Below are positions 27,001 to 30,000 of a stretch of 64,000 nt of DNA, in pieces; the stretch's first letter is position 1; the number at the start of each line of letters is the position of its first letter. This stretch comes from Pseudomonadota bacterium (GTDB taxonomy: Bacteria > Pseudomonadota > Gammaproteobacteria > Ga0077536): contig JAYYZW010000039.1 in NCBI GenBank assembly GCA_036339995.1, positions 35,852 through 99,851 on the forward strand, given 5' to 3'. The position numbers are program-made.

Positions 27001-30000
27001 AAAGCACTTCCAAGGAGAATAAGCGTGCGAGCGTCCAAGCCCTGCGAACCCCTGCCGCGTGATTTCCATGGCAGGCGAGCGACACGCCCTGCCACGGGGT
27101 ATGTGCCCGGGCACAAAAACGTCCATTCGGCGAATGCTTCCACAGCCGGCGCGCTCTGGCTTCACCTGCATCTGCCGCAGCTTCCACTGGAGGCATTGAC
27201 CCGCGGGGTCGCGACACAACGCGCCTGCGTGTTGACCGCAGGGGAGGGCAGCCGCCGGAAAGTCTTGATGGCTAATACCCGCGCGGCGGCGCTCGGTATA
27301 CGCCCGGGCATGCCGCTCGGCGCCGCGCATGCCTTGGGCGAGGTGACCGTGCTCGCGCGCAATGAACGTGCGGAACACCAAGCGCTGGACAAGCTTTGTC
27401 TGTGGGCGTTGCAGCTGAGTTCCCAGGTCAGCGCGGTACCGCCCGATGGGCTGGTGCTGGAGATCAAGGGCAGTCTCAGGCTGTTTAAGGGAATGGACGG
27501 TTTGTTGAGCCATCTGCGCCATGGTCTCAGGGGGCTCGGTTACCGGGTGCAGCATGCGGTGGCGCCGACGCCGATGGCCGCGGCCTTACTGGCGCGTTCA
27601 AATTCCCGTGCGATCGTTTTGGCGGAGCAGGATCTGATGCAGCACCTGTCACCGCTACCCATCGAAACCCTGCGCCTGGAAGTGCGCCACAGGGAGGCAT
27701 TGGAAAGCATTGGCGTCAGGTGTATCGGTGATTGTCGCCGCCTGCCGCGCGACGGCCTGGCGCGCCGTTTTTCACCCGTATTGAACGACATGCTGGATCG
27801 CCTCTTCGGACGGGCGCCCGATCCCCAGCCGGCTTTTTCCGTGCCCCGGTGTTTCGAAGCAGCACTCGACCTGCCCTGGGAACTCGACAACGCGCAGGCG
27901 CTCATCGTCGCGGGGGAACGCTTATTGCACGAATTGGTCGGGTATCTGAGAGGGAATGCGACGATGACGCGCCATCTGCGATGGCGGCTCATCGGTCGCG
28001 ACAATTCCCATACGTGTTTCGAAGTCGGGCTCACGCGGCTTGGCCGGGATTTCGATCACATGTGCCTCTTGCTCAGGGAAACACTGATGCGCATGAATCT
28101 GAAGGTGCCGGTGCGTGCCATCGAACTTTACGTGGATGACATCGTGCGCGGGATGTCGCCGTCTACGAGCGACTTGTTCTTGGAAAGAAACCATCAGGAT
28201 GAGGAAGCTTATGCGGTGTTCGTCGATCGATTCCGTTCGCGTTGTGGTGCCCGGGCACTGCGCGGACTGGAGCTGAAATTCGATCATCGTCCTGAACACG
28301 CATGGTGTTGGCGGTATCCGGACGATGGAAAACGCAGCCCCCCCCCAGGGGCGGTGGCTTCCAGCCCTTTCGGTGCCCGGCCATTGTGGCTGGTAAAGCA
28401 CCCCATGACACTCACGACTCGACATGGGTACCCGGAGTTCGACGGGCCTTTGCAACTGGTTCCCGAGCGCGAGCGGATTGATGCTGGCTGGTGGGATGGG
28501 CATGCAATAGCGCGCGACTATTTCATAGCGACCACCACGAGAGGAAGCCGTTTGTGGATATACGAGGAACTCGGCGGAGAGCGGTGCTGGCGCCTCCATG
28601 GAGTTTTCGAATAAGTCTCTAACAACCTGTCAATTCGGAAAGCACGAAGCCGAGCGTAACAAGCCAAGAATCGAAATCAAGATTCTATTTGTTGCGATCC
28701 CCGACCTTTCACCCCCAAGGCCTCGTACTTTGTGCTTTCCGTCTTTTTTATTTCCAGCGTGACGCGGTAACGGCTCGGTTCGTTGCTGAATCACGCAACA
28801 AATTCCTGACCTCAAGCTTCTTCCAACTATCCGGGGCGCCGAACCAAGCCAGACACGGCGAGCGATTTTAAGTTTCTCGCTTCGTAGTTTGTGCTTTATA
28901 CCCCCTCCTGGTTTGAGGTTTAGCCTCACTGCAACTTCGTATAGCAATGGCTATAACTTTGCGCCGCCTCTAGTGGTTTCGTACTCGCGCGAGCTTTCCA
29001 TCTATTCGCTTGGGTGATGTTTTAACCCTCCGGATGGCAAATCCGGAGGGCAAAATTTTCGTATGGAGCCGAGGAGATCACCGCTATACCTAAATTGCCC
29101 GACTACTGCAAGCCGTCGACTGGCGGAATATTGTTTTTAATGTGGAATTTAAATTAACTATCTGACAAATGTCACGAAGAGGTTATAATCCCTAGTGCTG
29201 CATCAAAGGGGGGACGAACGAGCAATGCGTGCATTCGTCGATTCAGTGTCCAGAATCAGGCTCTAATTGATCATGAAAGCCACGGAAATCAACGACTTAT
29301 TGCCGTTGCGCAACGCCAGTTTCGACACCCTTGTCGAGGCCTTGGAGTACGCGGCAGAGGGTCAGACCGGGTACAACTTCTACGATGGTCGCGGCGAATT
29401 ATACGCTGTGTTGAGCTATCGAGAGCTCCGGGACGAAGCTCGGATACTCGCCAGGCGCCTGCTCGGACTGGGGTGCAAGCGCGGCAGCCGGGTCGCGGTC
29501 ATCGCCGAAACCGAGCCCATGTTTCACCGATTTTTCTTCGCCTGCCAGTTTGCCGGATACATCCCGGTGGCGTTGCCCGCAGGATTTCAGCTCGGCGCGC
29601 GTGCGGCCTATGTCGAACAGCTCGAACGCATGCTTGACAGCTGCAGCGCGGATATCGCGGTGGCTCCGGAATCTCATATCGGATTTCTCAAACAAGCGGT
29701 AGAACGGCTTGATCTCGTGAAGGCGGGGACACCTGAGGAATTCGACAACCTGTCCGAGTATGACATCGAACTCGAACCCCTGCGCGCCAACGAAATAGCC
29801 TACCTGCAGTACACTTCCGGAAGCACGCGTTTCCCGCGCGGCGTGGAGATTTCTCAACATACCGTACTGACCAATCTGCGCGATATCGCGACGCAAGGCC
29901 TCAAGATCACGCGGCAGGATCGTATGGTCGCCTGGTTGCCGCTTTACCACGATATGGGCCTGGTGGGTTTCGTCCTGTTGCCGCTGGGCAGCCAGCTTTC

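Follow-up and report, generated by a model that had tools for sequence, protein, structure and literature searches.

A composite junction between an SOS operon and a sphingolipid operon: likely terminator, spacer, promoter and structured leader

Background

What accounts for the cluster of conspicuous features in the intergenic region (IGR) of ~650 bp that separates imuB from a fatty acyl-AMP ligase (FAAL) gene on contig JAYYZW010000039.1 of a gammaproteobacterium? The segment occupies positions 28615-29266 of the 64-kb stretch of DNA analysed here, which is called the window throughout, and lies between the SOS genes lexA-imuA-imuB and the spt operon for sphingolipid synthesis. A preliminary description had pointed to a near-consensus promoter, a palindrome over its -35 element, direct repeats, a perfect hairpin and a sharp fall in G+C content, and had proposed an island boundary, a regulatory hub for the spt operon or a small RNA (sRNA) gene.

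On comparison with related genomes, it is likely that the segment is a composite but ordinary intergenic region between two co-directional operons, made up of a terminator, a spacer, a promoter and a structured leader. The features that drew attention (the near-consensus -35, the palindrome and the perfect hairpin) appear from this comparison to be recent accidents of one genome, a warning for scans that use sequence only, and the remainder resembles an ordinary terminator-spacer-promoter junction. What is new is modest: a promoter box common to the spt cluster of E. coli and a clade-restricted leader motif that is not in Rfam. With this box and a clade-specific leader hairpin that carries a Shine-Dalgarno (SD)-like G-run ahead of an SD-less start codon, the locus offers a concrete and testable regulatory module for the aasR-reductase-acpR-spt operon. 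The anatomy and its conservation are read directly from the alignments, and from them we infer the transcription start, the termination and the function of the leader.

Conservation across related loci

The comparison set comprises 15 related loci, of which 14 carry the imuB-FAAL junction and one, L089, has no FAAL gene. A genome scan with ImuB gave L001, a gammaproteobacterial metagenome-assembled genome with 91 % identity in ImuB, and a metagenome scan with FAAL gave L002 (77 %) together with 79 more distant loci (L003-L081). Protein searches and contig look-ups added L082-L086 (ImuB identity 74-76 %; the 75 % relatives below), L087, L088 and L090-L093 (58-65 %), and L095 (96 % identical to L001). 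The gene order dgkA / lexA-imuA-imuB / FAAL-reductase-acyl carrier protein (ACP)-serine palmitoyltransferase (SPT) is kept in 14 loci, down to an imuB identity of ~58-60 %; the reductase, ACP and SPT genes were scored wherever the contig of the relative extends far enough. The linkage of imuB with spt is specific to a clade, since in L089 (60 % ImuB identity; 4299-5052) the place downstream of imuB is taken by a cupin gene and not by the spt operon. The same locus has a transposase-like helix-turn-helix gene upstream of lexA.

Alignment with these relatives divides the region into two parts. The first, 28615 to ~29120, is lineage-specific and alignable only with L001 and L095, and the second, 29121-29272, is strongly conserved. 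The 150 nt upstream of the FAAL start are 0.88 identical to L083 as against 0.43 at the fourfold sites of FAAL, and 0.65 identical to L088, L090 and L093 as against 0.40-0.48. With identity so far in excess of that at fourfold sites, 29121-29272 is under strong selection. The promoter and leader in it are conserved far beyond the neutral expectation in 13 of the 15 loci, L002 retaining the promoter outline only. The suggestion of a regulatory hub for the spt operon thus holds for the last ~150 nt, conserved in these 13 loci, and fails for the rest of the segment.

As for the end point of this conserved part, the FAAL start is taken as the conserved ATG at 29273, from which onward the N-terminus is conserved in alignments with relatives; the TTG at 29267 is just the earliest possible start following a stop codon.

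Promoter of the sphingolipid operon

The sigma-70-type promoter CTGACA-N16-TATAAT was confirmed at 29162-29189 on the + strand, upstream of FAAL and co-oriented with it, 84 nt before the ATG and with the hexamers and spacing expected of this class. It matches the consensus at 11 of 12 positions; no other site on the two strands of the window does so, and when the region was shuffled 2000 times the score was reached in 4. The promoter elements are conserved in the orthologous regions, CGTT..AATG(Y)G, TTAAATTAACTATCTCAC and GGTTATAAT being shared. The -10 element GGTTATAAT, in which TATAAT is preceded by GGT, is invariant in 13 loci and reads TATATT in L002, and the -35 of the relatives, CTCACT or CTCACA, agrees with the consensus at just 3-4 of 6 positions. 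Other promoter classes were rejected by eye: for sigma-54, TGGCAC is present with no GC at -12; for sigma-E, the spacing is 10 nt and not 16; and a PhoB box would have 4 of 7 matches to the consensus per half-site.

Overlapping the -35 is a 9-nt box, ACTATCTGA (29157-29165, + strand), 116 nt upstream of the FAAL ATG. Eleven of the 15 related loci have ACTATCTCA at this place, and L093 has ATTATCTCA. The CTGACA of the window is a derived C-to-G change within this conserved box, and it is to this change that the near-consensus -35 is due. The ancestral promoter probably relied on a block of sequence further upstream or on a factor binding the box.

The same box, ACTATCTCA, is present in the spt cluster of E. 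coli (NZ_CP021726, L094, 3148388-3163072), where it lies at 3866-3874 of that locus and is followed by TTAT, TATAAT and CCACCGC, elements that the promoter of the window has as well. Measured from the ATG (~3952) that matches the FAAL N-terminus in the alignment, the box stands ~86 nt upstream; from the annotated start (3983) the distance is 117 nt, compared with 116 nt here. The chance of finding a given 9-mer in an IGR of 400 nt is low (p ~0.0015), so the box appears to belong to the spt module. The comparison suggests that the module moves together with its promoter box over deep time, its context in E. coli being a different one. Of the sequences here, ACTATCTCA is the strongest candidate for an element that binds a factor or confers specificity. 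The literature searched yielded no regulator or transcription start site for this or the E. coli spt promoter, and nothing on regulation of bacterial sphingolipid synthesis by cis elements.

Upstream of the box is an A/T-rich block, GGCGGAATATTGTTTTTAATGTGGAATTTAAATTAACTAT (29121-29161, + strand; -76 to -36), which is almost invariant in the six closest genomes, recognisable in L087-L093 and found once in the window. It may be an UP-element-like or activator site. L082 tolerates a 430-bp insertion exactly between this block and the box over the -35, which speaks against an essential role for the block. The inserted L082 element itself (~7813-8261; ~430 bp) has 24-bp terminal inverted repeats (TIRs), GGGGCTTATATACATGACTAGACA, a target-site duplication (TSD), TTAAATTA, and an open reading frame (ORF) of 121 aa with no Pfam match.

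The promoter of the sphingolipid operon (aasR/FAAL-reductase-acpR-spt) would accordingly extend over 29121-29196 and consist of the A/T block, the box ACTATCTCA over a weak -35, and GGTTATAAT, with transcription predicted to start at ~29196-29197. A C-to-G change in this genome would then have produced CTGACA and, by accident, the palindrome.

Structured leader

From the predicted +1, the mRNA would open with a 51-nt stem-loop displaying a G-run (model R1; 29197-29247, + strand). R1 begins 6-7 nt past TATAAT in all syntenic loci but L002; in these 13 loci its length is 49-51 nt, and 24-25 nt separate its end from the ATG. Its parts occur in a set order: first GCUGYRUC, then A/G-rich sequence containing 5-7 consecutive G, next a hairpin and finally the invariant GAUUCAGU. 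In terms of structure, an invariant helix P1 (GCUG-AUC / GAU-CAGU) encloses an internal loop with the G-run, a covarying 6-bp helix P2, and a small variable P3 with its loop. Different clades write the hairpin in different letters (ACGAA/UUCGU, CGUGC/GCGCG, GUGUG/CACGC, AACCC/GGGUU and AGCUGC/GCGGCU).

Several lines of evidence point to a conserved structure. RNAalifold recovers both P1, formed by two invariant octamers, and P2, the variable hairpin. In the alignment 89.9 % of cells are paired, compared with 27-45 % when the partners are slid. Five of the six P2 pairs are changed on both sides, and the covariation score was reached by none of 500 shuffles. When a covariance model of R1 was run over 804 kb, each of the 13 syntenic loci gave a single match (44.7-78.3 bits). 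No further match turned up in this sequence, of which the 79 distant FAAL loci and E. coli formed part; the leader motif is accordingly absent upstream of the distant FAAL homologues (L003-L081) and of the E. coli cluster. R1 has no Rfam match at E <= 10. It is thus a covarying structure at a fixed position in the 5' untranslated region (UTR) of orthologous genes, as expected of a structured leader.

A familiar precedent for such a position is the hairpin in the ompA 5' UTR, a 5'-terminal stem-loop that stabilises its mRNA. Like stabilisers of that type, R1 keeps a conserved position: it begins no more than 1 nt from the predicted +1 and precedes a translation start region without structure. 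A stabiliser requires a stem and nothing more, whereas in R1 the P1 sequence and the G-run are invariant while P2 covaries. This coexistence of invariant and covarying parts suggests sequence-specific recognition. We conclude that the leader is an RNA element conserved at the 5' end of the transcript, with a G-rich loop of specific sequence, and infer that it most likely acts on mRNA stability, on ribosome loading of FAAL, or on both. Its role would then be post-transcriptional, through protection of the 5' end, recruitment of the 30S subunit as a standby site, or the two combined.

Some observations weigh against this interpretation. As a single sequence the leader is no more stable than its shuffles (z = +0.3 to +1.4), and the notion of a generally stable structure was dropped. 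P1, being invariant, draws no support from covariation and depends on the 7-bp complementarity of the two invariant octamers, the sole exception being one A-U to G-U change. The invariant bases could equally be explained as a DNA operator spanning +1 to +20, and both the transcription start and the 3' end are predictions.

A bolder proposal would make the 51-nt leader a new class of cis-regulatory RNA that sets sphingolipid output. Its binding partner (a protein, small RNA, metabolite or 30S subunit) would give it control over translation from the SD-less FAAL/aasR start, and it would act jointly with the box ACTATCTCA, which accompanies spt operons as far as E. coli. We offer it as a speculation of low probability.

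The G-run and the translation start of FAAL

The G-run (29208-29213, + strand), within CAAAGGGGGGAC, is invariant and SD-like, and lies in the internal loop of R1. In the nine syntenic loci computed, which include L002, its duplex with the anti-SD has an energy of -8.6 to -11.8 kcal/mol, stronger than the SD sequences of lexA (-8.3 kcal/mol) and imuB (-8.5 kcal/mol). FAAL itself starts without an SD: over 29253-29272, anti-SD pairing amounts to -2.5 kcal/mol here and +0.3 to -3.3 in the relatives of the same nine-locus computation. The SPT and imuA starts are likewise without an SD, but these adjoin the preceding gene.

In split or standby ribosome-binding sites, such as those of phage T4 genes 25 and 38, a hairpin brings a distant SD near the AUG. 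The arrangement here is similar in that a strong SD-like element is separated from an SD-less start by a conserved hairpin of fixed length. The distances differ. The G-run is ~58 nt from the FAAL ATG, too far for a normal SD, which counts against the reading preferred here, and even with P2 looped out ~33 nt remain between G-run and AUG, too far for a mechanism of the T4 type.

An alternative is that the leader is a translated upstream ORF (uORF), with the G-run as its SD, and that the SD-less FAAL is translated by coupled termination and reinitiation. The candidate, MRAFVDSVSRIRL (13 codons; 29225-29266, + strand), has its ATG in the hairpin loop and is doubtful. The G-run is 11 nt upstream of this ATG, the stop codon is 6 nt ahead of the FAAL ATG (with an overlapping ATGA in L087 and L088), FAAL has no SD of its own, and of the four substitutions seen among the closest genomes three affect a third codon position. 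Start codon and frame are, however, not conserved: the seven closest genomes have an ATG, L087 and L088 have a GTG in frame instead, the position of the start varies by clade, and in L090-L093 the frame contains neither ATG nor GTG nor TTG. The uORF in L002 is unrelated in both sequence and frame. Moreover, the conserved DSV codons, GAU UCA GU, correspond to the 3' strand of P1, and pairing first ceases at the third base, the one that varies. Since four loci have no start and the 'codons' coincide with P1, the uORF was rejected as a universal cause of the conservation of the leader, and we consider translation coupling of this kind unlikely. With the conserved RNA element as the preferred reading, the leader may additionally drive the 13-codon uORF in the clade of the window.

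The hairpin downstream of imuB

At the other end of the junction, the genes lexA, imuA and imuB lie in a single co-directional unit. Two adjacent SOS boxes of the form CTGT-N8-ACAG, CTGTATATAATTACAG and CTGTACGTTCAAGCAG, begin at 25711 and 25727 (span 25711-25742), upstream of lexA only, and LexA control of the spt promoter was dropped as no SOS box is present there. An SOS-box match with one mismatch at 28627 is not kept in L001.

The putative terminator stem of this unit is a branched hairpin of 106 nt (28636-28741, + strand) that begins 21 nt past the imuB stop codon. A 14-bp closing stem, CGGAAAGCACGAAG / CUUUGUGCUUUCCG, encloses two inner stem-loops, and abutting it is a U-tract read from the sequence, UCUUUUUUAUUU (28742-28753, + strand). 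This tract is present in L001 and L095 with one additional T, and none follows the hairpin on the - strand. The hairpin is the minimum free energy structure (-42.0 kcal/mol), and its G-U pairs suit the + strand only. The + strand of the upstream part folds better than is usual (z = -5.4, against -3.1 for the - strand), and this hairpin accounts for most of the effect. Eleven transitions each relative to L001 and L095 leave it intact, at -41.7 and -41.5 kcal/mol respectively, against a null of -31.5 +/- 4.7 kcal/mol (p = 0.011 for L001, 0.013 for L095), and two pairs are altered on both sides: 28636/28741 from C-G to U-A and 28661/28690 from A-U to G-C.

It is most likely that 28636-28753 terminates the lexA-imuA-imuB operon, because the hairpin begins 21 nt past the stop codon, has a U-tract on the + strand only and gives way to other palindromes at the same place in relatives. 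Like intrinsic (Rho-independent) terminators, it combines a stable stem with an immediate U6-U7 on the + strand, close behind the last stop codon, and shows compensatory changes. Unlike them, it has a 78-nt branched insert where a loop of 3-8 nt is usual, and its closing stem is A/U-rich rather than G+C-rich. The atypical insert keeps this assignment at the level of a probable one. Further points weigh on the same side: a simple terminator scanner made no call, L095 has a single pair-breaking change at 28692, and the conservation test uses two relatives, L001 and L095, that are not independent of each other. Under the model proposed here, transcription of the SOS operon would end at this hairpin and U-tract.

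Of the alternatives for this part, an sRNA encoded at 28636-~28760 (possibly to 29050), either stand-alone or derived from the imuB 3' UTR with the long hairpin as body and terminator, is quite unlikely. The + strand fold (z = -5.4), the structure kept through compensatory changes and the U-tract after the stem all agree with it, and many sRNAs derive from mRNA 3' ends. Yet the element occurs only in the lineage of the window and in L001 and L095, and is missing from the other 12 relatives; there is no promoter-like site upstream; no Rfam covariance model matched 28000-29800 on either strand at E <= 10; the remaining spacer is without conserved structure; and nothing distinguishes an sRNA from a plain terminator. 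The earlier proposal that the segment hosts a small RNA was not demonstrated, and could apply to this one hairpin alone, the sole one to keep its structure and one that looks terminator-like. A test for a miniature inverted-repeat transposable element (MITE) or repetitive extragenic palindromic (REP) element, which covered the window and 13.6 kb of L001, gave no second copy of the hairpin.

The direct repeats noted in the preliminary description at 28723-28740 and 28882-28899 are real and extend to 28720-28738 (GCCTCGTACTTTGTGCTTT, + strand) and 28879-28897 (GCTTCGTAGTTTGTGCTTT, + strand), 17 of 19 positions being identical. Copy 1 is the 3' arm of the 106-nt hairpin, copy 2 lies 159 nt downstream, and the 5' arm is formed by a partial and inverted third copy (28636-28649). 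Among 300 shuffles none gave a 16-nt direct repeat with one mismatch or fewer. The copies diverge in L001 and L095 (<=13/16 identical), and this drift agrees better with an old partial duplication than with two binding sites that are being maintained; copy 2 is probably its decaying leftover. No conserved structure was found around it in 28871-29020 (p = 0.39), and hairpin 2 (28756-28800) was dropped as a conserved structure, being not above the null (p = 0.5).

The fast-evolving spacer

Between terminator and promoter is a lineage-specific spacer (28754-29120, with no strand assigned), where conservation is confined to short islands such as TTTAACC..CGGATGGCA.AAT. Its identity to L001 (~0.875) equals that of the fourfold sites of the flanks (0.82-0.90; imuB 0.896, FAAL 0.816), so it evolves at about the neutral rate. 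Most of it, up to ~28975, is missing from relatives at or below 75 % imuB identity, which carry in its place a REP-like long palindrome and AT-rich sequence (the 75 % relatives) or unrelated GC-rich sequence (L087-L093). In 29010-29126, identity to L083 is 0.53-0.56 compared with 0.43 when shuffled, and a conserved sRNA there was dropped, as identity to the 75 % relatives barely exceeds the shuffled value. A scanner hit at 29113, for a terminator-like hairpin at 29094-29126, is not claimed; its stem has 5 bp and -5 kcal/mol, with no compensatory change.

The preliminary description had found no coding ORF here, and this was upheld. In the spacer ORFs (105 aa on the minus strand; 60 aa and 54 aa on the plus strand) substitutions are even across codon positions, and L001 breaks these frames by a 1-nt indel, a 26-nt insert or a 165-bp MITE. 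Six-frame translations of the region had no Pfam match at E <= 1, a tRNA/tmRNA scan gave nothing in the region, and the spacer matched neither plasmids and phages (blastn) nor viral contigs (exact-motif scan). Comparison with relatives shows 28754-~29120 to be junction DNA without function, which turns over quickly through indels, REP/MITE insertion and template switching.

The perfect stem-loop reported earlier does exist, at 29026-29050 rather than 29017-29041 and with a 10-bp rather than a 9-bp stem (CCCTCCGGAT / ATCCGGAGGG, loop GGCAA; located from the sequence). A perfect 10-bp hairpin arose in 1 of 300 shuffles. At this site L001, L095 and the 75 % relatives read AACCTYYCGGATGGCA(G/C)AAT, without the second arm, and the window has ~13 additional nt, AATCCGGAGGGCA, the reverse complement of the adjoining CCCTCCGGAT. 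As relatives have no second arm, the hairpin is a recent inverted duplication of the template-switch type, a single event in this genome only. It does not qualify as an intrinsic terminator either, being unconserved and followed by CAAAAUUUUCG, with only 4 U, 5 nt downstream of the stem. Within 40 nt, the window differs from L001 (29017-29060 against 8184-8225 of L001) also by a 12-nt deletion between two TTTAAC direct repeats. The interval 29017-29060 is thus a small hotspot of slippage and template-switch mutations.

Base composition and the question of an island

The G+C content of the IGR is 0.482, compared with 0.621 in imuB, 0.587 in FAAL and 0.589 in the whole window. The reported sharp drop is present in this sense, flanks of 0.62 and 0.59 giving way to 0.48, but it is ordinary, as other IGRs of the window have 0.48-0.58. 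The strongly AT-rich part is 29127-29196 only (G+C 0.27).

That the junction is the edge of a recently acquired island carrying the spt operon, with low G+C as an insertion scar, is very unlikely. In its favour are the G+C content itself, the accumulation of mobile elements here in relatives (MITE, REP and the L082 element with TIRs), and the spt module being in another context in E. coli and absent downstream of imuB in L089. On the contrary side, gene order is kept in 14 loci to ~58-60 % imuB identity, the G+C contents of imuB and FAAL bracket the window mean and are alike on both sides, the IGR is typical of the window, and neither an integrase nor flanking direct repeats mark the junction, with the nearest tRNA, the only one, 6 kb away at 22588. 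No recent event of the kind implied by an island boundary is indicated.

The palindrome over the -35

The palindrome TGACAAATGTCA is present over the -35 at 29163-29174 (no strand), and the part of the earlier claim that found no support is the reading of it as a repressor site. As an operator of a TetR/GntR-type repressor of the spt operon it is hardly credible, for all its perfect 5+5 dyad symmetry across the -35 and half-sites that resemble one another and a minus-strand -35. The dyad is broken in all 14 related promoters (TCACAAACGTCA in L001 and L095; TCACTTATGTTA, TCACTAATGTTA and others elsewhere), and palindromes with 5-bp arms are at chance level in the region, with 5 observed against 3.2 expected in shuffles. 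It requires the C-to-G change plus three more spacer substitutions; since it arises from substitutions found in no other genome, the 'operator' appears to be an accident. No TetR/GntR domain was found among the called flanking genes of the window or of the 14 syntenic loci (neighbours dgkA, lexA, imuA, imuB and the spt operon).

Comparison with known systems

The lexA-imuA-imuB unit resembles the SOS mutagenesis cassette lexA2-imuA-imuB-imuC(dnaE2) of Pseudomonas putida (PMC3901139) in that an ImuA equivalog and a Y-family protein of ImuB type follow, in the same direction, a lexA with two CTGT-N8-ACAG boxes. It differs in what comes after imuB: dnaE2 is absent from this place in all 15 related loci, and the sequence there is a terminator-like hairpin or REP palindromes. 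The window has no ORF of dnaE2 size. That the region is a degraded gene such as dnaE2/imuC, normally 3' of imuB in the canonical cassette and missing here, is the least credible reading, as no sign of such a remnant was seen: the six-frame Pfam search was empty, substitutions are even over codon positions with indels tolerated, and all 14 syntenic loci are without dnaE2 at this place, with IGRs mutually unrelated in that part.

The last four genes of the locus correspond to the aasR-epi-acpR-spt set, the sphingolipid synthesis genes of alpha-, beta- and gamma-Proteobacteria (PMC9386255), and the order is that of both the rhodobacterial set (PMC9386255) and the E. coli cluster (FAAL-epimerase-ACP-spt). 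Unlike the locus studied here, the E. coli cluster has neither the R1 stem-loop nor a G-run, and its upstream neighbour is yghO, not imuB. In E. coli, lptF/lptG paralogues follow the spt cluster on the opposite strand.

Neighbouring genes and mobile elements

Pfam and NCBIfam bore out the earlier calls of imuB, FAAL and SPT, and with them the gene map is as follows. On the - strand, glnS and dgkA lie upstream of lexA (Pfam and NCBIfam). They are followed by lexA (25750-26367; Pfam and NCBIfam), imuA (26364-26996; NCBIfam equivalog) and imuB (27025-28614), coding for an ImuB-type Y-family protein (Pfam and NCBIfam). FAAL, of the acyl-ACP-synthetase-like, aasR type (29273-31024, + strand; PRK09192, above cutoff; Pfam and NCBIfam), is the first gene of the spt operon, and is followed by the NAD-dependent reductase/epimerase, the ACP and the SPT genes (Pfam and NCBIfam). 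SPT (32246-33448) matches the 'SerpalmtaseBetaP' equivalog with 582 bits against a cutoff of 500. In L002, a marine relative, imuB is split by an in-frame stop into ORFs at 2969-4198 and 4216-4602 (locus 2969-4602), and the IGR carries an (AAAGCC)n hexanucleotide tandem repeat at 4622-4672.

Repeated elements are found in and around the junction in several genomes. REP-like long palindromes (CGCCAGCAAGCTGGCTCCTACGG ... CCGTAGGAGTCAGCTTGCTGGCG) lie directly 3' of imuB in the 75 % relatives (L083 7623-7690, L085, L086), and the same REP core, GCTCCTACGG, occurs as a pair elsewhere in the window at 14274-14321. A MITE-like family of 162 bp, with TIR GGAACCTCTGAATAAGTCATGG and TSD TTTA, has a copy in the window at 33455-33616, after spt. 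L001 has copies at 7870-8038, 3643-3808 and ~12604-12649, one of them inside the IGR at a site equal to 28868-70 of the window. The copy in L095 (~2140-2305) is at the same site as that of L001 with its interior reversed, which would represent an inversion or an independent insertion.

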